From positions 1 through 33,790 of the IMG/VR virus record IMGVR_UViG_2529292829_000010: a DNA stretch of 33,790 bases; one strand, given 5' to 3'. Of the stretch, positions 1,307 to 33,018 are shown in pieces (positions within the stretch are counted from its first letter, which is position 1; each line of letters starts with the position of its first letter). The stretch is from a virus (taxonomy: Duplodnaviria > Heunggongvirae > Uroviricota > Caudoviricetes). Made by a program: the position numbers and the translations under genes. Below the pieces are notes generated by a model, which worked only from the letters and a program-made list of their open reading frames with translations, was not told the origin of the DNA and ran no database searches.

Positions 1307-3787
1307 TTAAAAATCAACCGGATTCGGGATCAGTTTTTGCCAGATTGCTGAAACGTATTTTGCCTGGTGACGGGCATCATCCAGCGCATTGTGGCGCACG
1401 CCTTCAAATGGAATAACGATTCTGGCATCAAAGTCGATTGTTTTTCCCAGCTCAACGATTGTGCGTACATCGCGATCGTTGTAGTAACGCCACGGGCAGG
1501 GGATCCCCTGCCGTTCGTATGAACGGCGCAAAATTGCGTTATCGAAAGTTGCACCATTACCCCATACCTGAACGAATTTTTCATCTGAGTATTCGTGGAT
1601 GAACTCCCGAAACCGCGAAAGGGCATCCTTCAGTTTTACCTGGTCTGTTAAAATGGCAGCTCTGGCTTCACTGGACTGCTTCAGCCACCATTCGATGGTT
1701 CCACCGTCAGGAACAGCCCCTGTATTCATTGCGTCAGTCAGACTGATAACGATATAAAATACTGGCCCGATTTCCCCTGTTTGTGGGTCGAAGAAAACCG
1801 CACCAATAACCACGATGGGCGCATTGGTGTTGGTTCCCATTGTTTCAAGGTCGATCATCAGGTGATACCACACTCTGCTGGTGGATGTGATAATGTGACG
1901 ACCGTTCACCGCAATTAAGGGAGCTGCCGTCTCGCCAGTTTCATTATCGCTGGCGTGGTCCTGAGCGCTGCCAGCATTCTCCTTGTGTGGATGTTCAGCG
2001 CCTTCCATTTCCTTCGGATCATTTTCCTGAACTTCAACCTGATTCTTGTCATCGAATGTTTCCTGGTATGTTGCGTCGCCCATCACCGCGCCACAATCAG
2101 GGCAGTTGCCGCCACCGATCTGACCGCAGGCGGTGCAGACTTTTTCCGCTTCCTGTTGTGCTACCGGTTCGGATTGTTTCGTTTCTGGCTCGTTTTGTTG
2201 CGTATTTGGGCTGTTTTGTTCCGCTTTCTGGTCGTTCTGTTCCGTTTCTTGCTGGTTCTGGTTCACAGTATCGCGGGTCTGGATCCCCTTAACCCATTTC
2301 GGATCATTCGGGTCGCTAATCCCTGCAACAAATTCACCACGTGATACTGCAAGCAGTTCATCGGCGTCAGGCTGGCTGATATTGGCTGCCTGCATAATTT
2401 TGTTTACTTCGTTAGCGGTAACTTTTACCGGCCCTGGTTGTGCGGTCGTGTCAGATGCACCAGTATTTTGTTGTGAACCTGAGTATGTACCGTTTTTGCG
2501 GGCGAAATATTCTTCTTTCGTGATTTCAGTAGCCCCTGCAGCCAGTGCCTTATCCAGACCAGAAAGTTTGTTTGCGCGACCGTATTTTTCGCCATCCTTG
2601 TCGGTGAAGAGGAAGTAGAACGGCCCCTCACGCTCTACAGATGGTTCGACTTCCACTTTGCATTCGGTTTTTTCGTTGTCCGGAATTGCCGTTTCCACTG
2701 CATCAGTTTCTGGTACTGGCGACGAGAGAGTATCAGTTGCGCTCTGATTTGTTCCTTCATCTTCAAACACGCCCTTTGTAGTCAGGTATTCAGTAATGTA
2801 TTTGTTCAGTGCCACAGGATCTTTGTGAATGTCGATCGGACGTTCACGGACAAGGCCAAAAATAGTCTGGCGGTCGTAGCGAAGGGCATCAGGCTGTTTG
2901 CGCATCGATGCCGAGATACGCTTCCAGTCTTCGCGGTCGTTGTCGATAACTTCATTTTTTGCCCAGCGATGGATGCTGCCGTCAATGTTTCCGGCATCCA
3001 CATCACCAGGCCAGAGAGCGTAGGCCAGTTCGTCATCCAGTGTTTTCCATGTCTGCTTGTATTCGCGATGAGTGGCAGCAATGACCGGGTTGATTTTTCC
3101 TGTTGAATTTTCAGTGTTCTGTTGATTGACTCTGGCGCGGGCAAGATCAACAACAGACGTGTATTTTCCGGTTTCCTTGCGTTCACCTTCGCGACGTTTT
3201 TTCCAGATGCGCATCTCTGCCTGAATTTCGGGCCATTTGGCACCAGGCTTACATTTATGCTTAACCCACCCGATGGCATGCAGCTTAAGCTCCGGATACA
3301 TGGCGTTAACTTCTGGCATTTTCATCAACGCTTCAACGATATGTCCGTCGAATGTTGCCATGTCTTCCTGCAACAATTCCTGTGCGCTAATAACCATATC
3401 AACGGTGATGTTTTCACATGTGTCGAACTTAACCATGACAGCGTTCTGTACTTCAGGGGCCAGCTTGTCAAAAGTGACGTTCATCGGATCTGATTCAGTC
3501 TCAACCGGAACAAAGGAAGCAGACTCCTCATCCCAGCGGTTTTCCTGCATATATTCAGCATCCCAGGAATCGAGGGCAGGGCGGGGTATACCGGGTTTAT
3601 CCTCGCAAACAAGAAATTTATAAGCGCAGTCCTGAGCAGCCGGATATTGCTCCAGGAATTGCCAGGTAAATTTGGCACGGGCGCGGCGTTCGTCACCGGC
3701 TTCAATGGCAGTGGCTACAGCAACTGCACCTTCTTCCTTTATTGCCTGTTCGTCCGGAATGGCAGCGCAAATAAAGACTTTACTCAT
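1307..3787 (-). CDS. Large early-left protein, 826 aa: unknown N-terminal domain, Cys4 zinc ribbon, acidic linker, C-terminal DnaQ-like DEDDh 3'-5' exonuclease
   Basis: ATG at 3785-3787 with GAGG upstream. Exo motifs in the C-terminus: MIDLETMG (Exo I), WGNGATFDNAIL (Exo II), HNALDDARHQAKY (Exo III). CTACGQIGGGNCPDCG zinc ribbon. Gln/Glu/Asn-rich low-complexity linker. Confidence 0.8.
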   Translation of the reverse strand: MSKVFICAAIPDEQAIKEEGAVAVATAIEAGDERRARAKFTWQFLEQYPAAQDCAYKFLVCEDKPGIPRPALDSWDAEYMQENRWDEESASFVPVETESDPMNVTFDKLAPEVQNAVMVKFDTCENITVDMVISAQELLQEDMATFDGHIVEALMKMPEVNAMYPELKLHAIGWVKHKCKPGAKWPEIQAEMRIWKKRREGERKETGKYTSVVDLARARVNQQNTENSTGKINPVIAATHREYKQTWKTLDDELAYALWPGDVDAGNIDGSIHRWAKNEVIDNDREDWKRISASMRKQPDALRYDRQTIFGLVRERPIDIHKDPVALNKYITEYLTTKGVFEDEGTNQSATDTLSSPVPETDAVETAIPDNEKTECKVEVEPSVEREGPFYFLFTDKDGEKYGRANKLSGLDKALAAGATEITKEEYFARKNGTYSGSQQNTGASDTTAQPGPVKVTANEVNKIMQAANISQPDADELLAVSRGEFVAGISDPNDPKWVKGIQTRDTVNQNQQETEQNDQKAEQNSPNTQQNEPETKQSEPVAQQEAEKVCTACGQIGGGNCPDCGAVMGDATYQETFDDKNQVEVQENDPKEMEGAEHPHKENAGSAQDHASDNETGETAAPLIAVNGRHIITSTSRVWYHLMIDLETMGTNTNAPIVVIGAVFFDPQTGEIGPVFYIVISLTDAMNTGAVPDGGTIEWWLKQSSEARAAILTDQVKLKDALSRFREFIHEYSDEKFVQVWGNGATFDNAILRRSYERQGIPCPWRYYNDRDVRTIVELGKTIDFDARIVIPFEGVRHNALDDARHQAKYVSAIWQKLIPNPVDF

Positions 3788-3866
3788 TTTGTTTTACCTC
3801 ATTACAGATTTAAGGGTGAACAAATCCCTGCCATTGCTGGCATATAAAAATGAAACTGGATATTAA

Positions 3867-4424: not shown

Positions 4425-4482
4425 AAAAAGGGCGGCAGAGCAGTCACGGAGTAAAACTGATACCGCCAAACGTCACCAGAAA
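4425..4482 (-). ncRNA. dicF: DicF-like small regulatory RNA (ftsZ translation inhibitor)
   Basis: Minus-strand transcript 5'-UUUCUGGUGACGUUUGGCGGUAUCAGUUUUACUCCGUGACUGCUCUGCCGCCCUUUUU-3' matches my recollection of DicF, with a GC-rich 3' stem and U-run. Sits directly upstream of dicB, as in the Qin dicB operon. Confidence 0.75.
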
Positions 4483-11273: not shown

Positions 11274-11399
11274 TTTTATGGATCACCTTTCTGATTGATT
11301 TCATATTGGCGAGGTAGCAGGAGTTAAGTAGAATTGCTGCGGGTGCTTGAGGCTATCTGTCTCAGGCATGAACACCAAAAGGCAGATAGAGAAAAGCCC

Positions 11400-11462
11400 C
11401 AGTTAACATTACGCGTCCTGCAAGACGCTTAACATTAATCTGAGGCCATATCTATGCGACAC
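11400..11462 (-). ncRNA. Putative Sok-like antisense RNA
   Basis: Minus-strand promoter-like TTGACC (plus 11491-11496) with a weak -10 near 11466-11471. Antisense to the mok-like start at 11454. Hairpin GCGUCUUGCAGGACGC (plus 11412-11427) near the predicted 3' end. Boundaries inferred. Confidence 0.35.
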
Positions 11463-11513
11463 ATAGAGATTAGCCTCTTACGGACCGAAAGGTCAAGGAG
11501 AAGCAGGCTATGA
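11454..11513 (+). CDS. mok-like leader ORF, 19 codons, translationally coupled to hok
   Basis: ATG at 11454; its TGA stop (11511-11513) overlaps the hok ATG (11510-11512). Confidence 0.35.
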   Translation: MRHIEISLLRTERSRRSRL

Positions 11514-11665
11514 AGCAGCGAAAGGCGATGTTAATCGCCCTGATCGTCATCTGTTTAACCGTCATAGTGACGGCACTGGTAACGAGGAAAGACCTCTGCG
11601 AGGTACGAATCCGAACCGGCCAGACGGAGGTCGCTGTCTTCACAGCTTACGAACCTGAGGAGTAA
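11510..11665 (+). CDS. hokD: Hok/Gef-family type I toxin, 51 aa
   Basis: MKQRKAMLIALIVICLTVIVTALVTRKDLCEVRIRTGQTEVAVFTAYEPEE: single TM segment and conserved Cys pattern, matching my recollection of HokD/RelF. AGGAG 10 nt upstream. Below the 60-aa cutoff of the ORF track. Confidence 0.85.
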   Translation: MKQRKAMLIALIVICLTVIVTALVTRKDLCEVRIRTGQTEVAVFTAYEPEE

Positions 11666-12106: not shown

Positions 12107-13156
12107 GTGCGGGTATTACTTCGACCTGTTCTGGTGCCGGAACTTGGGGTGGTTATCGTTAAGCCTGGTCGTGAATCCATGCAGGTATTCCATAACGGCA
12201 GAGTGCTGGTTGAACCGGAGCCAAAAAGCATGCGCGGTCTGCCGTCCGGGGTCGTTCCTGCCGTTCGCCAGCCGCTGGCGGAAGACAAATCTCTGCTGCC
12301 ATTTTTCAGCGATGAGCGGGTGATTCGTGCTGCCGGCGGCGCTGGTGCACTGTCTGACTGGCTCCTGCGTCATGTTAAATCCTGCCAGTGGCCTCATGGT
12401 GACTACCATCACAGTGAAACCGTCATACATCGTTACGGTACCGGCGCGATGGTGCTGTGCTGGCACTGCGACAACCAGCTGCGTGACCAGACATCCGAAT
12501 CACTCGGGCAACTTGCTCATCAAAACCTGTCAGCATGGATGATTGACGTCATACGCCATGCAGTGAATGGCACGCAGGAGCGGGAATTATCGCTGGCTGA
12601 ATTATCCTGGTGGGCGGTCCGCAATCAGGTGGCGGACGCGCTTCCGGAGGCAGTATTACGTCGTTCTCTGGGGTTACGTGCGGAAAAAATCCGCTCTGTC
12701 TACCGTGAAAGCGACATCATACCGGGAGAGCAGACAGCCACCAGCATACTGAAGCAGCGCACAAAAAATATTGTGCTACCGCCTCACGCCCACCAGCAAC
12801 AGAACCCACCACAGGAAAAGACGGTGGTCAGCATTGCCGTTGATCCGGAGTCTCCTGAATCTTTCATGAAGCGACCTAAACGTCGCCGCTGGGTTAACGA
12901 AAAGTACACGCGCTGGGTTAAGACACATCCGTGTGCATGTTGTGGTAAGCCAGCCGACGATCCCCATCACCTGATTGGTCACGGTCAGGGAGGGATGGGG
13001 ACAAAAGCCCACGATATTTTCACGCTACCGCTGTGCCGGGAGCATCACAATGAACTTCATGCTGATCCGCTGGCATTTGAAGAAAAGCATGGTTCCCAGA
13101 TTGATTTAATTTTTCGTTTTCTTGATCACGCCTTTGCAACCGGCGTGCTCGGGTAA
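12107..13156 (+). CDS. YdfU-like (DUF968) protein with C-terminal Cys/His cluster, 349 aa
   Basis: GTG at 12107 four nt after GGAGG. C-terminal HPCACCGKPADDPHHLIGHG...LCREHHNELH. Same size and position as Qin YdfU. Confidence 0.65.
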   Translation: MRVLLRPVLVPELGVVIVKPGRESMQVFHNGRVLVEPEPKSMRGLPSGVVPAVRQPLAEDKSLLPFFSDERVIRAAGGAGALSDWLLRHVKSCQWPHGDYHHSETVIHRYGTGAMVLCWHCDNQLRDQTSESLGQLAHQNLSAWMIDVIRHAVNGTQERELSLAELSWWAVRNQVADALPEAVLRRSLGLRAEKIRSVYRESDIIPGEQTATSILKQRTKNIVLPPHAHQQQNPPQEKTVVSIAVDPESPESFMKRPKRRRWVNEKYTRWVKTHPCACCGKPADDPHHLIGHGQGGMGTKAHDIFTLPLCREHHNELHADPLAFEEKHGSQIDLIFRFLDHAFATGVLG

Positions 13157-13168
13157 AAGAGGTTACTG

Positions 13169-13540
13169 ATGCGTATAGAGTTTGTTTTGCCTTACCCGCC
13201 AACGGTGAACACCTACTGGCGACGTCGTGGCAGTACATATTTTGTATCAAAAGCCGGTGAGCGTTATCGCCGTGATGTGGCGCTCATTGTTCGCCAGCAG
13301 CGACTGAAATTAAATCTGTCCGGAAGGCTAGCGATCAGGATTATTGTGGAGCCACCGGATAAGCGCCGTCGTGACCTGGACAATATCCTGAAAGCGCCAC
13401 TGGATGCACTGACACATGCGGGACTGCTTATCGACGACGAGCAGTTTGATGAAATTAATATTGTGCGCAGTCAGCTTGTACCTGGTGGTCGGCTGGGCGT
13501 GAAGATTTACGAAATTACAGGTGGTAACGATGGCACGTGA
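13169..13540 (+). CDS. rusA: Holliday junction resolvase RusA, 123 aa
   Basis: [31 protein letters not shown] closely parallels E. coli RusA [31 protein letters not shown]. AGAGG RBS. Confidence 0.9.
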
Positions 13541-13895
13541 TATTCAGATGGTTCTTGAGCGTTGGGGAGCGTGGGTGGCAAATAATCATGAGGATGTCAC
13601 ATGGCCATCGATTGCTGCTGGCTTTAAAGGATTAATACCGTCGAAAGTTAAATCGCGTCCGCAATGTTCCGACGATGACGCAATGATCATTTGTGGCTGT
13701 ATGGCCCGGTTGAATAAGAACAACAAAGAATTACACGATTTGCTGGTAGATTATTACGTGGCGGGCATGACGTTTATGGCGCTAGCACGAAAGCATGGTC
13801 GTTCGGATTGCTGGGTTGGCCGTTTGTTGCAAAAGGCTGAAGGGATAGTTGACGGCATGTTGATGATGCTTGATATCAAGCTGGACATGGACTGA
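13530..13895 (+). CDS. Late-gene antiterminator Q (short QuuD-type), 121 aa
   Basis: ATG at 13530 six nt after AGGTGG; overlaps the rusA stop. Cys cluster [16 protein letters not shown]. Canonical Q position between rusA and the late region. Confidence 0.75.
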
Positions 13896-13913
13896 TAAAA
13901 CTTAACTCACATA

Positions 13914-13933
13914 CCCTCTCCATGCGGAGAGGG
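13914..13933. terminator. Hairpin between convergent Q and lipoprotein genes (possible bidirectional terminator)
   Basis: CCCTCTCC-ATGC-GGAGAGGG, 8-bp stem. U-rich sequence on both sides is not immediately adjacent. Confidence 0.4.
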
Positions 13934-13939
13934 TATGAA

Positions 13940-14419
13940 TTAAATGTTTTTATAATAACTCGCTTTTTCGTTAAAATTATTTTTGTTTTCTCTGGATGGA
14001 GAACTTACGTAGTTTTCCCATGCGCTATACGTTTTGATTAATGCTTCTCGCTCTGTAGGTGATTTTGTGTTTGCCTTGAGTTTTTCAAATGGTTCTTTTG
14101 CTGCATTTAAAACGATCATCATTTGCTCGATGTCGCAGTCAGCGATTGCTTTTGATATATCGGGATCCCAGCCAACTCTCACTAACATATCTTGCTTGCT
14201 GGAAGTAATAAATTGTGTAGTGTTGATTATCATTTCTCCCTTATATAGAAGCTTTAAAAAATTATTTTTGTTAACTTGCTGGGGCGTGTTGTCCAAGGTG
14301 ATATTTTCGCATTTCTTTAAATACGCATAATGATCACTATTTCTGTTTTCTGCGGAAGATTGAGCCGTACACCCTGTAATGATCAATGTACTTAATAATG
14401 TCAATGCTATTTTTTTCAT
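13940..14419 (-). CDS. Lipoprotein of unknown function, 159 aa (moron)
   Basis: Signal peptide MKKIALTLLSTLIITGC with lipobox ITGC. Gene is visibly AT-rich relative to its flanks and oriented against the surrounding operons. Confidence 0.75.
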   Translation of the reverse strand: MKKIALTLLSTLIITGCTAQSSAENRNSDHYAYLKKCENITLDNTPQQVNKNNFLKLLYKGEMIINTTQFITSSKQDMLVRVGWDPDISKAIADCDIEQMMIVLNAAKEPFEKLKANTKSPTEREALIKTYSAWENYVSSPSRENKNNFNEKASYYKNI

Positions 14420-14495: not shown

Positions 14496-14523
14496 TTTAC
14501 AATCGTAAAAAATCAAATATGCT
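14496..14523 (+). promoter_or_regulatory. Candidate Q-dependent late promoter (PR'-like)
   Basis: -35 TTTACA (14496-14501), 16-nt spacer, -10 TATGCT (14518-14523). A short-transcript terminator follows about 35 nt downstream. Confidence 0.35.
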
Positions 14524-14557
14524 GTTAAGAGTGGTTACTTCGCCACACAGCTTAAAC

Positions 14558-14577
14558 CCGCCGCCAGGCGGTTTTTT
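14558..14577 (+). terminator. Candidate tR'-like intrinsic terminator
   Basis: CCGCC-GCCA-GGCGG followed by TTTTTT. Confidence 0.5.
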
Positions 14578-14700
14578 GTGTCCGAAAAACGGCGCAGTAC
14601 GTTAAACGTGCTGGTGGTTGCGAATACCGGTCTTTCAGCTTGCTGGCTTTTTCGACAAGAGTTATTGGTATGTCACGTTAACCAGAAAAGGGAAAAAGAC

Positions 14701-14898
14701 ATGCTAAAACAGCAGGATATGACCGAAACTGCCAGAGTGGTGTTTAATGAATTAAGCGTCACCGAACCGGCGACCGTCGGGGAGATTGCGCAGAATACTT
14801 ACCTTTCACGCGAACGCTGCCAGTTAATACTGACCCAGCTTGTTATGGCGGGTCTGGCAGATTATCAGTTCGGTTGTTACAGACGCCTTCCGCGGTGA
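14701..14898 (+). CDS. Small winged-helix-like protein, 65 aa
   Basis: ATG at 14701. PATVGEIAQNTYLSRERCQLILTQLVMAGL resembles a wHTH recognition region. Weak RBS. Confidence 0.45.
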   Translation: MLKQQDMTETARVVFNELSVTEPATVGEIAQNTYLSRERCQLILTQLVMAGLADYQFGCYRRLPR

Positions 14899-15048: not shown

Positions 15049-16098
15049 ATGGCTAATACTGTAAAAATATCCAGTTGTGAGTTAATCAACGCTGATTGTC
15101 TGGAATTTATCCAGACCTTACCGGAAAATTCTGTCGATCTGATAGTCACAGACCCGCCATACTTTAAAGTGAAGCCCGAGGGCTGGGATAACCAGTGGAA
15201 GGGCGACGATGATTACCTGAAATGGCTGAATCAGTGTCTGGCGCAGTTCTGGCGGGTACTGAAGCCCGCAGGAAGTCTTTACCTGTTCTGTGGTCATCGC
15301 CTGGCATCTGACACCGAAATCATGATGCGTCAGCGCTTTAATGTGCTGAACCACATTATCTGGGCGAAGCCGTCAGGGCGCTGGAACGGGTGCAACAAGG
15401 AAAGCCTGCGGGCGTATTTCCCGGCAACAGAGCGCATTCTGTTTGCAGAACATTATCAGGGGCCATACCAGCCCAAAAATGACGGCTATGAGGCAAAGGG
15501 GCGTGAGCTAAAACAGCACGTCATGGCCCCGCTGATTTCTTACTTTCGTGATGCGCGTGAATCACTGGGAATAACGTCAAAACAGATAGCGGAAGCCACC
15601 GGAAAGAAAAACATGGCTTCGCACTGGTTTGGTACCAGTCAGTGGCAATTACCGAACGAGGGTGATTACAACAAATTGCAGGCGTTGTTTGCGCGTGTTG
15701 CGGCAGAAAAGCATCAGCGAGGGGAACTGGAAAAGCCACACCACCAGCTGGTCAGCACATACAGTGAACTGAACCGGCAATATGCCAGCCTGCTGGAAGA
15801 GTATAAATCTTTGCGGCGTTATTTTTCCGTATCGGCTGCCGTTCCGTATACGGATGTCTGGACGCATAAATCCGTGCAGTTTTATCCGGGCAAACATCCC
15901 TGTGAAAAACCGGCAGATATGTTGCGGCAGATAATTGAGGCCAGCAGTCACCCTGGTGATTTGGTTGCGGATTTTTTTATGGGTTCAGGTTCAACGGTAA
16001 AAGCGGCGATGGCACTGGGGCGTTGTGCGATTGGTGTTGAGCTGGAGACCGGACGTTTTGAACAGACAGTCAGGGAAGTTCAGGATTTAATCGTTTGA
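15049..16098 (+). CDS. DNA methyltransferase, beta-class amino-MTase (probably N6-adenine), 349 aa
   Basis: Motif IV IVTDPPYF near the N-terminus and motif I DFFMGSGST near the C-terminus (IV-TRD-I order). No adjacent restriction endonuclease. Confidence 0.85.
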   Translation: MANTVKISSCELINADCLEFIQTLPENSVDLIVTDPPYFKVKPEGWDNQWKGDDDYLKWLNQCLAQFWRVLKPAGSLYLFCGHRLASDTEIMMRQRFNVLNHIIWAKPSGRWNGCNKESLRAYFPATERILFAEHYQGPYQPKNDGYEAKGRELKQHVMAPLISYFRDARESLGITSKQIAEATGKKNMASHWFGTSQWQLPNEGDYNKLQALFARVAAEKHQRGELEKPHHQLVSTYSELNRQYASLLEEYKSLRRYFSVSAAVPYTDVWTHKSVQFYPGKHPCEKPADMLRQIIEASSHPGDLVADFFMGSGSTVKAAMALGRCAIGVELETGRFEQTVREVQDLIV

Positions 16099-16148
16099 AA
16101 CGGATGAGATTGCAGAATTAATTACGCACCATTATTATTCTGCTCCCG

Positions 16149-16224
16149 GCCCTTTAGCTCAGTGGTGAGAGCGAGCGACTCATAATCGCCAGGTCGCTGG
16201 TTCAAATCCAGCAAGGGCCACCAT
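16149..16224 (+). tRNA. tRNA-Ile2 (anticodon CAU, lysidine type; ileZ/ileX-like)
   Basis: Cloverleaf: acceptor GGCCCTT/AAGGGCC, D-arm GCTC-AGTGGTGA-GAGC, anticodon loop CUCAUAA (CAT at 16182-16184), T-loop TTCAAAT, encoded CCA. Close to E. coli ileX as I recall it. Confidence 0.85.
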
Positions 16225-16231
16225 CACATAC

Positions 16232-16305
16232 CGCCATTAGCTCATCGACAGAGAGTGCCAGCTTTCGAAACTGGCTGTGTGGGGCTCGGGTCCCCGATGG
16301 CAATC
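16232..16305 (+). tRNA. Degenerate tRNA-like element (possible pseudo-tRNA, Arg-like UCG)
   Basis: tRNA-like arms, but the D-loop lacks GG, the anticodon stem GCCAG/CTGGC encloses a 9-nt loop CTTTCGAAA, the T-loop is CTCGGGT (no A58), the acceptor pairing is imperfect and there is no CCA. Confidence 0.35.
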
Positions 16306-16320
16306 TATTATCTGCATTAT

Positions 16321-16397
16321 GCGTTGTTAGCTCAGCCGGACAGAGCAATTGCCTTCTAAGCAATCGGTCACTGGTTCGAATCCAGTACAACGCGCCA
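16321..16397 (+). tRNA. tRNA-Arg (anticodon UCU, decodes AGA; argO-like)
   Basis: Acceptor GCGTTGT/ACAACGC, anticodon stem ATTGC/GCAAT with loop CTTCTAA (TCT at 16355-16357), T-loop TTCGAAT, encoded CCA. Confidence 0.85.
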
Positions 16398-16411
16398 CGC
16401 TTATTTTTCCA

Positions 16412-16435
16412 GGCTCGCTTCGGCGGGCCTTTTTC
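16412..16435 (+). terminator. Intrinsic terminator after the tRNA array
   Basis: GGCTCGC-TTCG-GCGGGCC (one G-U pair) followed by TTTTTC. Confidence 0.65.
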
Positions 16436-16572
16436 ATATCCGCGCCACGCCCGGCGAATATCAAAAAACCACAGAGCCTTTCAGGGGTGAGCTTACGGGA
16501 TGGTCAGTGTGACTTTCTCTGTGGGCTGGTCACCACCGGGCGCAGGCTCACCCACTAAAAGGAAAAGTCACG

Positions 16573-16998
16573 ATGTTTGGTATTTTCAAAAAGAAAACCC
16601 GCAAGGCCATTACCGAAGTGAAGAAGATGGAGAACCGCGACGCAGTGGAGGCGACCGTCTGGGGCGCGTATTCCATTGCATACGCTGACGGCACCTGTGA
16701 TGCGAAAGAAATCGCAGTACTGGAGAAAACCATTGCAGCACTTCCTGCCTTTGCGCCGTTCTCCGGTGAGATTGCCCAGATGAGCGCCAATATCCGCGCC
16801 CGTTATGAAGCATCCCCGCGTTCAGCCAATGCCGAAGCCCTTCGTCAGCTGGCTGATGTCGCCGGTACTGATGATGCAGTTAATGTGCTGTGCCTGTGTC
16901 TGGATATCGCTGACCAGGATGGCATTGGTCCGGATGAAGAAGCACAGCTCAAGAAAATTGCGCAGGCGCTTCAGCTACCGCTGGAGCAGTACCTGTGA
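16573..16998 (+). CDS. TerB-like domain protein, 141 aa
   Basis: Helical pattern of acidic and hydrophobic residues (AYADGTCDAKEIAVLEKTIAAL ... LDIADQDGIGPDEEAQLKKIAQAL) typical of TerB/DjlA-N-type domains. AAGGA 10 nt upstream. Confidence 0.6.
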   Translation: MFGIFKKKTRKAITEVKKMENRDAVEATVWGAYSIAYADGTCDAKEIAVLEKTIAALPAFAPFSGEIAQMSANIRARYEASPRSANAEALRQLADVAGTDDAVNVLCLCLDIADQDGIGPDEEAQLKKIAQALQLPLEQYL

Positions 16999-17147
16999 AA
17001 AGTGCGCGCCTTGTGCTGGCTGCCATCCTGCTGTTTCTGGTAGTGGCAGTGGATTTCACCGGACGGCTGATGTCGGTGCTGGCAGATGGTGTGCTGGTGG
17101 TGATGGCGCTGGTCGTGCTCCGGCCTTTACTGCGTAAATCTGAATAA
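16995..17147 (+). CDS. Putative 50-aa membrane microprotein (GTG start)
   Basis: GTG at 16995 overlaps the TerB TGA (GTGA). VKSARLVLAAILLFLVVAVDFTGRLMSVLADGVLVVMALVVLRPLLRKSE has two hydrophobic segments. Not in the ORF track. Confidence 0.4.
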   Translation: MKSARLVLAAILLFLVVAVDFTGRLMSVLADGVLVVMALVVLRPLLRKSE

Positions 17148-17198
17148 CACCACACAAAAGGCATCTGCGGGTGCCTTTGACGGGGTATTGTTTTTTAC

Positions 17199-17222
17199 GG
17201 GCCGCTGGTGGCCCTTTTTTAT
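17199..17222 (+). terminator. Intrinsic terminator before the lysis cassette
   Basis: GGGCC-GCTGGT-GGCCC followed by TTTTTTATTT. A weaker hairpin AAAGGCA...TGCCTTT lies at 17157-17178. Confidence 0.7.
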
Positions 17223-17239
17223 TTACAGGAGAAAAAAGT

Positions 17240-17632
17240 ATGTCTGAACCCTTATCCGGTTCCGGTACGGCTGCGGCGCTCGGTGGAGCGACGGTATTCG
17301 GGCTGTTTACCGGAACGGATTTCGGGATTGTGTTTGGTGCGTTCGCCGGGGCGTTATTTGTGGCAACAATTCCGCAGGCGCTTTCAGCCTGGCGTGTGGC
17401 GGCGCATTTTCTGGTGTCGTTCATTATCGGCGTGCTGGGGGCAGGGGTTCTGGCATCCTGGCTGGTAAAGCACACAGGGTTTGACGGAGCGCCTGTCGAC
17501 GCACTGTGTGCAGTACTGGTGTCAGTGGTGTCGGTGAAGATTCTCTCGTTCATCCACCAACAGGATATCGCATCACTGGTGTCCGGCCTGTTATCTCGCC
17601 TGCGTGGCGGAGGAGGCGGCAATGTTAAGTAA
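17240..17632 (+). CDS. Holin-like membrane protein, 130 aa, three predicted TM segments
   Basis: ATG at 17240 with AGGAGAAAAAAG upstream. Three hydrophobic segments. Immediately upstream of a second membrane protein and the endolysin. Confidence 0.55.
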   Translation: MSEPLSGSGTAAALGGATVFGLFTGTDFGIVFGAFAGALFVATIPQALSAWRVAAHFLVSFIIGVLGAGVLASWLVKHTGFDGAPVDALCAVLVSVVSVKILSFIHQQDIASLVSGLLSRLRGGGGGNVK

Positions 17633-17900
17633 CCTTCCCGGATTACTGAATGTGGCGTTATGCACGGTTATCGTGCTGACGCTCTTTTTTTATCGTCGCC
17701 GTGATTCCAGACATAAACCGCTGATGTCATGGCTGGCCTGGCTGCTGATGCTGCTGTATGCCTTTGTGCCCCTCAGCTATCTGTGTGGTCGCCCGTTAGC
17801 GGTGAACTGGCTGGCGGTGGGGCTTAATCTGCTGTTCTGCGTGCTGGTGATTCGCGCACGCGGGAACGTTTCAAAAATCTTTGTATTACGAAGGCGCTGA
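17622..17900 (+). CDS. Second holin/antiholin-like membrane protein, 92 aa
   Basis: ATG at 17622 overlaps the end of the previous ORF. Three hydrophobic segments and a basic C-terminus RARGNVSKIFVLRRR. Confidence 0.55.
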   Translation: MLSNLPGLLNVALCTVIVLTLFFYRRRDSRHKPLMSWLAWLLMLLYAFVPLSYLCGRPLAVNWLAVGLNLLFCVLVIRARGNVSKIFVLRRR

Positions 17901-17901
17901 T

Positions 17902-18447
17902 ATGAAGTCGAAAGATGAAATTTTTGACGAAGTTCTGGGAAAAGAGGGCGGTTACGTCAATCACCCGGATGATAAAGGCGGACCGACAAAATGGGGTATT
18001 ACAGAAAAAGTCGCCCGCGCTCACGGATATCGCGGCGATATGCGTGACCTGACGCGCGGGCAGGCGCTGGAAATACTCGAGGCGGATTACTGGTTCGGAC
18101 CACGTTTTGACCAGGTCGCCGCATTATCCCCTGATATTGCTGCAGAGTTGTGTGATACCGGTGTGAATATGGGGCCGTCCGTAGCATCGAAAATGCTCCA
18201 GCGCTGGCTGAACGTTTTCAACCTGCAAGGCAAATTGTTCCCGGATATGGACGCAGACGGGCGTATCGGCCCCCGCACGATTAATGCACTACGGGCTTAT
18301 CTGCAAAAACGCGGCAAAGACGGCGAACTGGTAATGCTGACTGCGCTGAACTGTACGCAGGGTGACCGCTATCTGGAGCTGGCAGAGAAACGGGAGGCTA
18401 ACGAGTCATTTGTCTACGGCTGGATGAAAGAGCGCGTAGCAGTTTAA
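17902..18447 (+). CDS. Endolysin: GH108-family muramidase with C-terminal peptidoglycan-binding domain, 181 aa
   Basis: N-terminal FDEVLGKEGGYVNHPDDKGGPTKWGIT is the GH108 signature. C-terminal region resembles PG_binding_3. Follows the holin-like genes. Confidence 0.8.
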   Translation: MKSKDEIFDEVLGKEGGYVNHPDDKGGPTKWGITEKVARAHGYRGDMRDLTRGQALEILEADYWFGPRFDQVAALSPDIAAELCDTGVNMGPSVASKMLQRWLNVFNLQGKLFPDMDADGRIGPRTINALRAYLQKRGKDGELVMLTALNCTQGDRYLELAEKREANESFVYGWMKERVAV

Positions 18448-20445: not shown

Positions 20446-20937
20446 ATGGATCATGAGTTGAAAAAACTGGTGCTGAATATTAATCAACTGGCGGCTTTAT
20501 CTGGTCTGCACCGCCAGACTGTCGTGGCAAGACTGAAAAACATTCGTCCCGCTGGTGGACATGACAAACTCAAGCTATACCGGTTGACCGATATTCTGAC
20601 TGAATTTATGGGGTTACCACCGCCGGTTGCTGAGGGCGAAATGGATCCACATGAACGCAAAGCCTGGTATCAGTCTGAACGTGAGCGTCTTAAGTTCGAA
20701 CAGGAAACGGCACAACTCATTCCGGCCAGTGATGTCAGACGGGAGTTTGCCATCTGGGCAAAAGCGGTCGTGCAGGTGCTGGAGACATTACCGGATATTC
20801 TTGAACGTGACTGCGGTCTGCAGCCTGCCGCTGTGAGCCGTGTTCAGTCCATTATTGATGATCTGCGCGATCAGATAGCCCTGCGGGTGACTGAAACAGG
20901 TGCGGATGATGAGGAGGAATTACAGCAGGAGGAGTAA
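20446..20937 (+). CDS. Terminase small subunit (Nu1-like), 163 aa
   Basis: GGAGG RBS. N-terminal HTH LNINQLAALSGLHRQTVVARL. Acidic C-terminus. Directly upstream of and overlapping the large terminase subunit. Confidence 0.8.
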   Translation: MDHELKKLVLNINQLAALSGLHRQTVVARLKNIRPAGGHDKLKLYRLTDILTEFMGLPPPVAEGEMDPHERKAWYQSERERLKFEQETAQLIPASDVRREFAIWAKAVVQVLETLPDILERDCGLQPAAVSRVQSIIDDLRDQIALRVTETGADDEEELQQEE

Positions 20938-30002: not shown

Positions 30003-33000
30003 CCTTGTTATTGATTTAAGTGTTGATACGGCTGATTTTAAGGAACAGCTTCCGCGTATTAAAGCGCAACTCAATGGTACCGCCAGCGAAGCGGCGCGCG
30101 CAGAAGCGCGGGTCAGACAGTTTGAAGCGAGTCAGAAGCAGGCGGCGACTACCGCGGTGAAACAGACTCAGGCACTGGCGGGGAATGCGCAGGCGCATGT
30201 TTCGTTGTCAGAGGATGTGGAACAGACCCGTCAGCGACTTGATGCCCTGAACCGGAAAATGCGTGAGGAGCAGGCGCAGGCGGCGGCACTGGCTGCTGCT
30301 CAGGATAAAGCCGCTGCTGCATTTTATCGTCAGATTGACAGTGTGAAACAGGCGGGGGCCGGACTGCAGGAGCTGCAGCGTATTCAGCAGCAGGTCCGTC
30401 AGGCCAGAAACAATGGTGGCATCGCGCAGCAGGATTATCTGGCGTTAATCTCCGAAGTGACGGCAAAAACCCGCGTGCTGGCTCAGGCTGAAGAATCCGC
30501 CCCCCGCCAGAAGACGGCCTTTATCCGGCGGCTGAAGGAGCAGGTATCCGCTCAGAATCTTTCATCCACGGAGCTGCTCAGGGCAAAAGCCGCGCAGCTG
30601 GGTGTCAGTAGTGCGGCTGAGGTGTATATCAGCAAAATGGAAAAAGCCGGGAAGGTCACGCATTCGCTGGGGCTGAAAAGTGCGGCGGCCCGCCAGGAGA
30701 TAGGTGTTCTGATAGGTGAAATTGCCCGGGGTAATTTCGGTGCGCTTCGTGGCTCCGGGATCACCCTGGCTAACCGTGCCGGATGGATTGACGCGCTGAT
30801 GTCCCCGAAAGGCATGGCTGTCGGCGGGGTTATCGGTGGACTCACTGCTGCTGTTGTCGGGCTGGGAAAGGCCTGGTATGACGGTCAGAAGGAGGGGGAG
30901 GTGTTTAATCGTCAGCTGGCGTTGACAGGGCATTATGCGGGCATCACTACCGGACAGCTGTGGACTCTCAGTCGCGCCATTTCCGGGAATGGTATCACGC
31001 AACATGCTGCAGCCAGTGCGCTGGCTCAGGCGGTTGGCAGCGGTGCATTTCGTGGAGGTGATATCGCCATGGTGGCGAAAGCTGCCGCGCAAATGGAAAG
31101 TTCAGTGGGGCAGTCTGTCAGCGACACCATCAGTCAGTTTAAGCGACTGAAGGATGACCCGGTAAATGCAGCCAGGACGCTGGATAATGAACTGCATTTC
31201 CTGACTGCCACCCAGCTTGAACAAATCCGTGTTCTCGGGGAACAGGGGCGTGCCAGTGATGCTGCCCGGATCGCCATGTCAGCGCTGGCAGAGGAAACCG
31301 GTAAACGCACATCTGATATTGATAATAATCTCAATGCGCTGGGCAGTACGCTGCAAACCTTATCTGACTGGTGGAAGCAGTTCTGGGATGCCGCCATGAA
31401 TATCGGGCGTAATGATTCCCTTGATGCGCAGATTGCGGCGCTGCAGGAAAAAATTCAGCGTGCGAAAAAATCGCCCTGGACAAATGCATCCACCACAGTG
31501 GAATACGACCAGCAGCGCCTTGATGAACTTCAGGAGAAAAAGCGCCAGAAAGATTTACAGGATGCAAAAGAGCAGGCAGAGCGGAATTATCAGGAGCAAC
31601 AGAAACGCCGGAATGCTGAAAATGCCGCGCTGAACCGGATGAACGAAACGGAAGCGGCACGACATCAGCGTGAAATTGCGCGTATTAATGCCATGCAGTA
31701 CGCAGATCAGTCGGTCAGGGACGCAGCGATACAGCGTGAAAATAAACGTCACAAAAAAGCCATTAAGAAAGAAACGCCTGCCACCCGTAATGATGAGGCC
31801 ACCCGGTTATTACTGCAGTACAGCCAGCAACAGGCGCAGGTGGAGGGGCAGATCGCCGCCGCCAGACAGTCCGCGGGACTGACCACGAAAAAAATGACGG
31901 AAGCGCATAAGCAGCTTCTGGCCCTGCAGCAGCGTATCAGTGATTTAGCCGGTAAAAAGCTGACGGCAGATGAAAAAAGCGTGCTGGCGCATAAGGATGA
32001 ACTGATTCAGGCGCTGACGCTGCTGGATGCAAAACAGCAGGAGCTGCAGAAGCAGACGGCGCTGAATGACCTTAAGAAAAAATCCATTCAGCTTGCCAGC
32101 CAGCTGGCGGAAGAGGAGCGGGTTCTGCGTCAGCAACATGACCTGGATATCGCCACGACAGGGATGGGGGATAAACAGCGTCAGCGATACCAGGCACAGT
32201 TCAGTCTGCAACAAAAATATCAGCAGCAGCGGGAACAGTTGGAGCGTGACAGTAAGCGGAAAGGAACATATGGCACAGATGAATACCGGAATGCTGAGCA
32301 GACGCTGACAGACAGTCTTAACCGGCAACTGAACGAAAACAGACGCTACTGGCAGGAGCAGGAACTGATGCAGGCAGACTGGAAAAACGGTGCCATGCGG
32401 GCGTTTCAGAATTTTACGGCAGATGCGGATAATGCGGCAGGAACTGCTGAGCAGATGTTTACAGCGGCATTTAACAGTGCAGGTAATGCACTGGCGACGT
32501 TCTGCACGACAGGTAAACTGAATTTCAAATCCTTTACCGCCTCGCTTCTTTCCGACCTGGCAAAAATCATGGCGCAGATGGCCATTATGCAGGCGGTGAA
32601 GGGGATTGGTTCGGCGTTTGGCTGGGGGAGCGCATCCGCTGCCAGTGTGACGCCCAATGCAGATGGCGGTGTTTATCAGTCTGCGGATTTGAGCCGTTAC
32701 AGTGGCTCAGTGGTTAACCGCCCGACGTTTTTTGCCTTTGCAAAAGGCGCGGGGGTGATGGGAGAAGCGGGACCTGAAGCCATTCTGCCACTGCGTCGTG
32801 GTGCCGACGGTAAGCTGGGCGTTGTGGCGGATATTGGTGGTTCAGGCATGGTGATGTTTGCCCCGCAGTACAACATCGCGATCAATAACGACGGTACGAA
32901 CGGGCAGATAGGTCCGGCTGCCCTGAAGGTGGTTTATGACCTCGGGAAAAAAGCTGCAGCGGACTTTATGCAACAGCAGTCCCGTGATGGCGGTCAGTTA

Positions 33001-33018
33001 AGCGGAGTGTATCGGTAA
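29986..33018 (+). CDS. H: Tail tape measure protein H-like, 1010 aa (TTG start)
   Basis: N-terminus SQIADLVIDLSVDTADFKEQ parallels lambda H PVGDLVVDLSLDAARFDEQ. C-terminus ...INNDGTNGQIGPAALKVVYDL...RDGGQLSGVYR parallels lambda H ...INNDGTNGQIGPAALKAVYDM...RDGG. The frame opens after TAA at 29980-29982, so TTG at 29986 (after GGGAGGA) is the only plausible start. Confidence 0.9.
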   Translation: MSQIADLVIDLSVDTADFKEQLPRIKAQLNGTASEAARAEARVRQFEASQKQAATTAVKQTQALAGNAQAHVSLSEDVEQTRQRLDALNRKMREEQAQAAALAAAQDKAAAAFYRQIDSVKQAGAGLQELQRIQQQVRQARNNGGIAQQDYLALISEVTAKTRVLAQAEESAPRQKTAFIRRLKEQVSAQNLSSTELLRAKAAQLGVSSAAEVYISKMEKAGKVTHSLGLKSAAARQEIGVLIGEIARGNFGALRGSGITLANRAGWIDALMSPKGMAVGGVIGGLTAAVVGLGKAWYDGQKEGEVFNRQLALTGHYAGITTGQLWTLSRAISGNGITQHAAASALAQAVGSGAFRGGDIAMVAKAAAQMESSVGQSVSDTISQFKRLKDDPVNAARTLDNELHFLTATQLEQIRVLGEQGRASDAARIAMSALAEETGKRTSDIDNNLNALGSTLQTLSDWWKQFWDAAMNIGRNDSLDAQIAALQEKIQRAKKSPWTNASTTVEYDQQRLDELQEKKRQKDLQDAKEQAERNYQEQQKRRNAENAALNRMNETEAARHQREIARINAMQYADQSVRDAAIQRENKRHKKAIKKETPATRNDEATRLLLQYSQQQAQVEGQIAAARQSAGLTTKKMTEAHKQLLALQQRISDLAGKKLTADEKSVLAHKDELIQALTLLDAKQQELQKQTALNDLKKKSIQLASQLAEEERVLRQQHDLDIATTGMGDKQRQRYQAQFSLQQKYQQQREQLERDSKRKGTYGTDEYRNAEQTLTDSLNRQLNENRRYWQEQELMQADWKNGAMRAFQNFTADADNAAGTAEQMFTAAFNSAGNALATFCTTGKLNFKSFTASLLSDLAKIMAQMAIMQAVKGIGSAFGWGSASAASVTPNADGGVYQSADLSRYSGSVVNRPTFFAFAKGAGVMGEAGPEAILPLRRGADGKLGVVADIGGSGMVMFAPQYNIAINNDGTNGQIGPAALKVVYDLGKKAAADFMQQQSRDGGQLSGVYR

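Follow-up and report, generated by a model that had tools for sequence, protein, structure and literature searches.

A probable copy of the ileZ-argN-argO tRNA operon with a decayed argN, located between the antiterminator and lysis genes of a prophage without stx

The ileZ-argN-argO tRNA cluster has been annotated since the genome records of the Shiga toxin (Stx) phages 933W and phiP27. In the annotation of 933W, the order is pT, ileZ (AUA), argN, argO (AGA), a terminator and stxA2, with the array on the late-operon strand between the antiterminator gene Q and the lysis genes. A tRNA promoter has also been recognized in the Q-stx2 interval of O157 Stx2 phages (PMC2858043), and recent papers on Stx prophages mention variation of the cluster, pseudo-tRNA included. 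Neither the class of cluster nor its architecture is new, and the two-tRNA form with a dead middle gene has been published as well (phiP27); we took this precedence from the GenBank annotations of 933W and phiP27 and from secondary papers. These phage tRNAs are usually explained by codon compensation (PMC7946995, PMC3636060). The same rationale has been proposed (PMC3636060) for the Asn and Thr tRNA genes that SfI, Sf6, ST64T and P21-type phages carry in the same niche just downstream of Q, although these tRNAs have other specificities and sequences unrelated to those described here. On the K-12 chromosome, ileX and ileY (Ile2, CAU) and argU (Arg, UCU) share their anticodons and loops with ileZ and argO. 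Unlike these chromosomal counterparts, ileZ and argO sit together in a small operon within the late region of a prophage.

The DNA analyzed here (the window) is a single stretch of 33,790 nucleotides. ARAGORN called two tRNA genes in total on this 33.8-kb sequence (CAT, 16148-16223; Arg TCT, 16321-16397), which flank a degenerate unit. The three form a tRNA array on the + strand at 16148-16397, in the order Ile2-CAU, degenerate middle unit and Arg-UCU. An initial annotation, made from the letters of the sequence, had given its limits as 16149 and 16397, of which the end was right and the start one base off. The array and its presumptive signals are as follows.

16110 to 16138, + strand: putative tRNA promoter, TTGCAG-N17-TATTAT (aligns with 933W pT; conserved hexamers)
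16148 to 16223, + strand: ileZ, tRNA-Ile2 gene, anticodon CAU (ARAGORN, Rfam, identity to 933W, PGAP)
16231 to 16307, + strand: predicted argN pseudogene, originally tRNA-Arg with anticodon UCG (comparison with 933W argN, Rfam, folding)
16321 to 16397, + strand: argO, tRNA-Arg gene, anticodon UCU (ARAGORN, Rfam, comparison with 933W and argU)
16411 to 16438, + strand: intrinsic-terminator-like hairpin with T run (terminator scan, fold, alignment with 933W)

The two flanking genes scored 72.5 and 70.1 bits with the Rfam tRNA model (RF00005, gathering score 29 bits). In a prophage carrying identical genes, PGAP annotates a tRNA-Ile and a tRNA-Arg with nothing between them. The flanking tRNAs and their anticodons, CAU and UCU, were thus recovered as initially read. 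As a positive control, the same tools found all three tRNA genes of 933W. Other Rfam matches were rejected: a plastid-ycf2 match antisense to ileZ (36 bits where 65.7 is required) simply reflects the tRNA shape, and STnc100 (19 bits), isrB and other weak matches near the array fell below threshold.

Compared with 933W, the locus showed 90.5% identity (347 of 351 nt aligned), which bears out the proposed likeness to the ileZ-argN-argO cluster of Stx phages, hundreds of which match the 351-bp locus with approximately 90-91% identity. Gene order, spacers, pT and the downstream terminator are the same in 933W and VT2-Sakai (AF125520, AP000422) as in the window. The genes follow each other on one strand as Ile(CAU)-Arg(UCG)-Arg(UCU), as in the reference cluster, separated by spacers of 7 nt and 13 nt. 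In a three-way alignment with 933W, ileZ was identical and argO differed by one base, whereas the argN homologue differed at 14 of 77 positions. Both arrays share the strand of the late operon and are bracketed by Q and the lysis genes, but three differences stand out. The argN of 933W is intact (54.8 bits) while its homologue in the window is predicted to be a pseudogene (23.7 bits). The distance from Q to the array is 2.25 kb in the window, where lipoprotein-like, TrmB-like and methyltransferase genes intervene, and about 440 bp in 933W. Finally, stxAB follows the array in 933W and TerB/TciB-like genes follow it in the window. Taken together, the locus is most probably a copy of the known ileZ-argN-argO operon of E. 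coli lambda-like prophages in which argN has decayed.

For the Q and methylase module of the window, the closest deposited phage is the Stx2e phage phiP27 (AJ298298). The stretch from Q to the methylase aligned with phiP27 at 92.3% identity over 62% of its length, in two pieces that include Q. In phiP27, too, ileZ and argO are the only annotated tRNA genes, with a non-tRNA remnant of approximately 100 nt (a 101-nt gap) between them, and its two-holin lysis cassette is similar. The phiP27 remnant belongs to another sequence class (64% identity to that of the window, and labelled 'tRNA-OTHER' by PGAP in a near-identical prophage), which points to independent decay or replacement. Unlike in the window, stx2e follows the array of phiP27. 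A twin of the whole window was absent from the complete-genome set, the best match having 79% coverage and 93.8% identity.

Q precedes the array by 2.25 kb and the holin and endolysin genes come after it, all on the + strand, in the following neighborhood.

12107 to 13156, + strand: DUF968 gene
13169 to 13540, + strand: RusA gene
13521 to 13895, + strand: antiterminator Q (Pfam PF06530, E = 6e-51; phrog_79)
after Q: strong hairpin
13940 to 14419, - strand: gene with a lipoprotein signal
14496 to 14523, + strand: candidate late promoter, TTTACA-N16-TATGCT (promoter scan)
14558 to 14577, + strand: terminator hairpin with T run (terminator scan, fold)
14578 to 14898, + strand: small TrmB-like ORF
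15049 to 16098, + strand: DNA methyltransferase gene, directly upstream of the array (Pfam PF01555, E = 5e-44)
16573 to 16998, + strand: TerB-like gene (Pfam TerB; phrog_632, E = 4e-65)
16995 to 17147, + strand: TciB-like/DUF3927 gene, 50 aa (phrog_1470)
17171 to 17632 and 17604 to 17900, + strand: two holin genes (Pfam Phage_holin_8 and Phage_holin_3_7)
17881 to 18447, + strand: endolysin gene (phrog_315)
from 20446, + strand: terminase and structural genes

With Q at 13521-13895 and the holins starting at 17171, the initial placement of the array, after Q and before the lysis genes, was correct. The candidate promoter and the terminator at 14496-14577 plausibly form a pR'/tR'-like arrangement. 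A long aligned block common to phiP27 and other phages begins at approximately 14508-14523. The order of methylase followed by tRNA genes is also found in phiP27, in further Stx2 phages (86 and PA28 among them) and in many prophages. On the other side of the array, the TerB/TciB-like pair fills the slot occupied by stxAB in Stx phages, and a TerB-family gene was likewise found 3' of the array in three of the other arrays compared (L004, L007 and L011). The absence of stx, also part of the initial annotation, held: no Stx-like coding sequence or remnant was detected in the window by tblastn with StxA2 and StxB2 (best E = 0.24), and by the stxA/stxB criterion this is not a Shiga-toxin-converting phage. 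Among prophages, the flanks of the array vary: either Q or a methylase precedes it, and what follows may be stx, TerB, a holin or DUF3927.

The putative tRNA promoter consists of the hexamers TTGCAG (16110-16115) and TATTAT (16133-16138) followed by a G+C-rich discriminator, and the mature 5' end of ileZ is located 10 nt past the -10 hexamer. It aligns with the 933W feature annotated as 'pT; putative tRNA promoter'. In the 13 arrays that we compared by alignment, the -10 hexamer was invariant and the -35 hexamer read TTGC[A/G]N in 12. A generic promoter scan did not report the array promoter, of which the -35 hexamer fits the consensus at three of six positions. Downstream, the terminator-like hairpin closes the tRNA unit. 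It has 8 bp, six of them G-C, with a folding energy of -16.1 kcal/mol, and it aligns with the 'possible rho-independent terminator upstream of the stx genes' of 933W, the hairpin being conserved. From these signals, we infer that the array is a self-contained small operon, with a putative promoter of its own, nested in the Q-dependent late unit. Because this putative promoter is conserved and of the sigma-70 type, expression of the array need not be late-only.

The first gene, ileZ, scored 72.5 bits with the Rfam model (E = 3e-14 for the whole window) and is 100% identical to ileZ of 933W, for which the record states 'codon recognized: AUA'. ARAGORN labels it Met from the anticodon alone, a label used in several GenBank phage records, and an elongator or initiator tRNA-Met would be the rival reading. 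The body of the gene is that of ileX, with 68 of 76 positions identical to the K-12 gene as opposed to 54 of 78 for the elongator metT, and the differences from ileX are mostly paired stem changes. TilS recognizes tRNA-Ile2 through the acceptor pairs C4-G69 and C5-G68. Both pairs are present in ileZ, whereas metT has U4 and A5 there. The gene is not an initiator because G1-C72 is paired. In thousands of genomes, moreover, the PGAP label of an identical sequence is tRNA-Ile. The tRNA-Met reading was rejected on the strength of the ileX-like body and the two acceptor pairs, and its probability is close to nil. The CAU gene is thus assigned to the Ile2 type, not Met, and its product is predicted to read AUA after lysidine modification. 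Its anticodon loop is the same as that of the host ileX, its 3' CCA is encoded, and the only departure from a canonical cloverleaf is pair 27:43 in the anticodon stem, an A·C mismatch that corresponds to G·U in ileX.

The last gene, argO, scored 70.1 bits (E = 1.6e-13 for the whole window). Its cloverleaf contains no non-canonical pair and its 3' CCA is also encoded. It is identical to argO of 933W at 76 of 77 positions, the exception being position 37 (A here, G in 933W), and to argU of K-12 at 56 of 77, with the anticodon loop CUUCUAA common to both. The arginine identity nucleotides A20, C35 and G73 are present as in argU. By sequence, argO is a canonical tRNA-Arg(UCU) gene, and its product is predicted to read AGA and, weakly, AGG.

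Between these two genes, the initial annotation had noted a degenerate tRNA-like element, and this description was upheld. ARAGORN called no tRNA there, and positions 16231-16304 fit the Rfam model end to end with a score of 23.7 bits, below the threshold of 29 (E = 0.01 in a search of 381 nt). The argN gene of 933W, used as a control, gave anticodon TCG and 54.8 bits. The two are identical at 63 of 77 positions (14 substitutions), and the UCG triplet still occupies its position in the loop of the middle element. Three cloverleaf pairs are broken: the GG of the 3' acceptor strand has become AA, creating two C·A mismatches, and a third C·A mismatch lies in the anticodon stem (31:39). In addition, the D-loop GG (G18/G19) is missing, T54 has changed to C, A58 to G and CCA to CTA. 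A functional tRNA would have a score above the Rfam threshold, an acceptor stem of 7 bp, G18G19, T54, A58 and a 3' CCA, all of which the element lacks. Its cloverleaf energy is -16.5 kcal/mol compared with -28.3 kcal/mol for argN, and its free fold is no better than that of shuffled sequence (z = -0.46). PGAP leaves the element unannotated in relatives. Among deposited phage genomes, we found none with the same relic allele, and the best full-length match (90.1%) was an intact argN. We classify the middle element, from its sequence, as an argN pseudogene.

To describe the variation of the array among E. coli prophages, phiP27 was added to the 13 aligned arrays for the inter-tRNA segment only. 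At least four states of the middle slot were observed among the compared arrays.

Intact Arg-UCG: 933W and L003
Relic class of the window: the window, L002, L011 and L012
Longer degenerate form, annotated by PGAP as 'tRNA-OTHER' or not at all: phiP27, L004 to L006 and L008 to L010
Lys-UUU-like gene (37 bits): L007

Across 12 arrays, variable columns numbered 3 of 76 in ileZ, 38 of 77 in the middle element and 8 of 77 in argO. Within the allele class of the window, the middle element varied at 6 of 77 columns, while ileZ (0/76) and argO (0/77) did not vary. With so few changes in ileZ and argO and so many in the element that separates them, the comparison indicates strong purifying selection on both genes and free variation of the middle slot.

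For codon usage, we set a curated collection of 43 window ORFs, verified with Pfam and PHROGs, against a baseline of 42 annotated CDS from a core region of K-12. The frequencies per 1000 codons were as follows.

Window, all ORFs: AUA 6.5, AGA 6.1, AGG 4.9
K-12 core region: AUA 2.4, AGA 1.2, AGG 0.7
Window, early genes: AUA 9.1, AGA 8.6, AGG 6.6
Window, late structural genes: AUA 3.4, AGA 4.2, AGG 3.4

Relative to the K-12 core, the odds ratios (OR) for the window were 2.7 for AUA, 5.0 for AGA and 7.3 for AGG (p <= 2e-6), an enrichment somewhat inflated by the several highly expressed genes included in the baseline region. Among the AUA/AGA-rich genes of the window is a 339-codon ORF at 1-1020 with 8 AUA and 7 AGA codons. 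The initial annotation had proposed that the phage brings rare-codon decoding capacity for late gene expression, and had named the codon usage of the late genes as a check. The enrichment was indeed found prophage-wide, but it is concentrated in the early genes, which are enriched 4-10 times in AUA, AGA and AGG and exceed the late structural genes in both AUA (OR 2.7, p = 0.0015) and AGA (OR 2.1, p = 0.016). The late structural genes showed no AUA enrichment over K-12 (OR 1.4, p = 0.3), and none of the three codons (AUA, AGA, AGG) occurs in the TerB-like/TciB-like pair of the stx slot. By comparison, frequencies in stxA2 and stxA2e reach 47-50 per 1000 codons for AUA and 19-25 for AGA. The window thus lacks the gene that would be the best 'customer' of the array. 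CGA and CGG, the codons of argN, are in heavy use despite the apparent death of argN (CGG reaches 18.6 per 1000 codons in the late genes), so the retention of a tRNA cannot be predicted from codon demand. Overall, codon supplementation is partly supported: it holds for the prophage as a whole and not for the late genes specifically. This demand in early and accessory genes qualifies the usual late-gene or toxin rationale for such tRNAs.

These results suggest the following scheme. In the lysogen, the short operon would be transcribed from its own sigma-70 promoter, a consensus match with a weak -35. Induction would add transcription by Q-modified RNA polymerase that started at the late promoter and passes the flanking terminators. 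Host tRNA-processing enzymes would cut the precursor, and the host TilS would place lysidine at C34 of the ileZ product, turning it into an AUA reader charged with isoleucine, while the argO product would read AGA and, less well, AGG. Both tRNAs would top up the scarcest host tRNAs (ileX/ileY and argU) and thereby help to translate the A+T-rich genes that this prophage and others in the same cell acquired horizontally, in which these codons are 3-7 times commoner than in core genes. The argN relic would give no functional tRNA.

The array might serve counter-defence instead, its tRNAs replacing host tRNAs cut by nucleases of defence or competition systems and its middle slot reflecting an arms race. 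Such a role is plausible for phage tRNAs in general (PMC12445682, PMC11464382), with rescue reported from PARIS (tRNA-Lys), PtuAB (tRNA-Tyr) and P2-OLD (tRNA-Thr UGU), and two features of this locus would suit it, namely the changing content of the middle slot (Arg-UCG, Lys-UUU-like, 'tRNA-OTHER', relics) and the 27:43 mismatch of ileZ in place of the G·U of ileX. However, the literature that we found names no nuclease for tRNA-Ile2 or tRNA-Arg(UCU), and the known cases of evasion depend on an altered anticodon arm, whereas ileZ and argO have the same anticodon loops as ileX and argU. The middle element of the window has lost core tRNA features and gained no new specificity, and the codon enrichment of the prophage is highly significant. 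We consider this role unlikely. A more passive reading would see in the array a leftover of stx or of other AUA/AGA-rich cargo, conserved as a recombination linker and of no benefit. The extreme use of AUA and AGA by stxA2 and stxA2e, the absence of these codons from the genes now in the slot, the late structural genes without AUA enrichment and the different modules flanking the array in different prophages would all fit. On the other hand, a mere linker would hardly account for the near-invariance of ileZ and argO in stx-negative prophages next to a freely mutating middle element, for the conserved promoter hexamers, or for the strong codon enrichment of the early genes. This reading, too, seems improbable.

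A further question is whether the middle element still acts as an RNA, for instance as an RNase P/E processing spacer or handle, a decoy or a small regulatory RNA. It was never simply deleted: at least three degenerate classes retain an element of 77-81 nt in which the 5' half of the acceptor and the T arm are recognizable, and a cloverleaf-like fold with an acceptor stem of 5-6 bp can still form. Yet its folding stability equals that of shuffled sequence, the nucleotides for tertiary interactions and the CCA end are gone, and the classes are 61-65% identical with little common internal sequence. Even within its own allele class, six of 77 sites vary, as against none of 153 in the two flanking tRNAs. 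An RNA function is accordingly very unlikely in our view. We would give just as slim a chance to the idea that the middle slot is a fast-turnover cassette shaped by tRNA-nuclease conflict, in which relics could be decoys or processing handles. Under codon supplementation by ileZ and argO, our preferred reading, the argN homologue is a relic, and the visible constraint does fall on ileZ and argO only. The middle gene appears dispensable, having been lost or replaced several times.

The relic allele itself (at least 90% identity) was found in approximately 87 complete-genome records, and is unannotated in those sampled. In approximately 1,400 records the allele is 80-90% identical, and in all of those sampled but one it is annotated as tRNA-Arg. 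A close relative of the Lys-like allele is found in 559 more, without tRNA annotation in the sampled ones. Predicted dead middle genes are thus common in E. coli prophages, of several kinds and of more than one origin. The locus as a whole was matched in 3,091 of 5,426 complete E. coli genomes, at up to 13 places per genome and with approximately 7,700 arrays in total. Present in more than half of these genomes and independent of stx, the array is therefore no marker of toxin phages.

The interval between the Q antiterminator gene (13521-13895, + strand) and the DNA methyltransferase gene (15049-16098, + strand) includes the following two features.
Within 13909-14419, - strand: ORF of 159 aa with a lipoprotein signal (MKKIALTLLSTLIITGC...), assigned to phrog_8179
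14496-14577, + strand: promoter-like site TTTACA-N16-TATGCT, then a G+C-rich hairpin plus T run
The reverse-strand ORF, which had no match in Pfam, is an insertion that separates Q from the candidate late promoter, and a perfect 12-bp hairpin (-23.7 kcal/mol) lies downstream of Q, just past the 3' end of this ORF. In the Stx2e phage phiP27, the Q-methylase interval holds a different gene, annotated in RefSeq as a GIY-YIG nuclease. The G+C-rich hairpin and T run come about 35 nt past the promoter-like site. Site and hairpin may constitute a pR'/tR' pair, in which case the late leader RNA would be short and terminated. The long aligned block common to the window, phiP27 and several Stx2 phages begins near 14496-14577.

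Codon usage was considered for the late structural genes (20446-33018). CGG reached 18.6 per 1,000 codons, approximately five times its frequency in the K-12 core sample (42 annotated CDS of one K-12 core region, several highly expressed genes included; p = 2e-20), while CGA accounted for 6.6 per 1,000 codons. Despite this use of CGG and CGA in late genes, argN (anticodon UCG), which would read both codons, is dead in the window prophage.

The middle slot of the array, occupied by the argN pseudogene (16231-16307) in the window, has other contents elsewhere. A second, apparently unrelated degenerate element of at least 81 nt was found in L005 (432-512), phiP27 (3735-3835) and five further arrays compared (L004, L006, L008-L010). 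Its acceptor halves and CCA end are intact, with the anticodon-arm region replaced, and in L009 an internal G run is expanded. PGAP labels this element "tRNA-OTHER" in strain STEC276, where a Stx2 e/i/l/k-subtype gene lies downstream. In E. coli E2 (L007, NZ_CP104509.1, 416-492) and related prophages, the slot is filled by a tRNA-Lys(UUU)-like gene, called in L007 by both ARAGORN and PGAP (Rfam, 37 bits). This exact allele occurred in nine complete-genome records, mostly from poultry isolates, and alleles 95-99% identical to it in 559 records, with no tRNA annotation among the matches listed (n = 3). Since the PARIS nuclease AriB acts on tRNA-Lys(UUU) as its target (PMC12445682), it may be worth considering this variant separately.

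Variation was also observed in argO. Position 37, 3' of the anticodon, is G in the Stx2 phage 933W (4224-4300) but A in the window (16321-16397), in the 11 other arrays compared and in host argU. A37 is reportedly invariant among P2-OLD nuclease substrates (PMC12445682). In E. coli AF44 (L010, NZ_OZ547155.1), a rearrangement at about 516-560 truncates argO right past the anticodon, leaving ileZ as the only annotated tRNA; this truncated form is present in several genomes.

Downstream of the array, the exact position of stxAB in Stx phages is occupied in the window by a gene pair.
16573-17147, + strand: TerB-family "tellurite resistance" moron (phrog_632) and 50-aa TciB-like/DUF3927 gene (phrog_1470)
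The same TerB gene follows the array in three other sampled prophages (L004, L007, L011). Neither gene of the window pair contains AUA, AGA or AGG codons.

Two further loci were identified elsewhere in the window.
4430-4481, - strand: DicF small RNA, full length (76.7 bits with Rfam RF00039 against a cut-off of 48)
11341-11512 plus ORF 11510-11665, + strand: hok/sok-type type I toxin-antitoxin locus (sok RNA model)
DicF is likewise present in Qin-type lambdoid prophages. The sok model scored 106.7 bits, with a Hok-like ORF of 51 aa after it; the homologue of this ORF is annotated as hokD in ATCC 43896.
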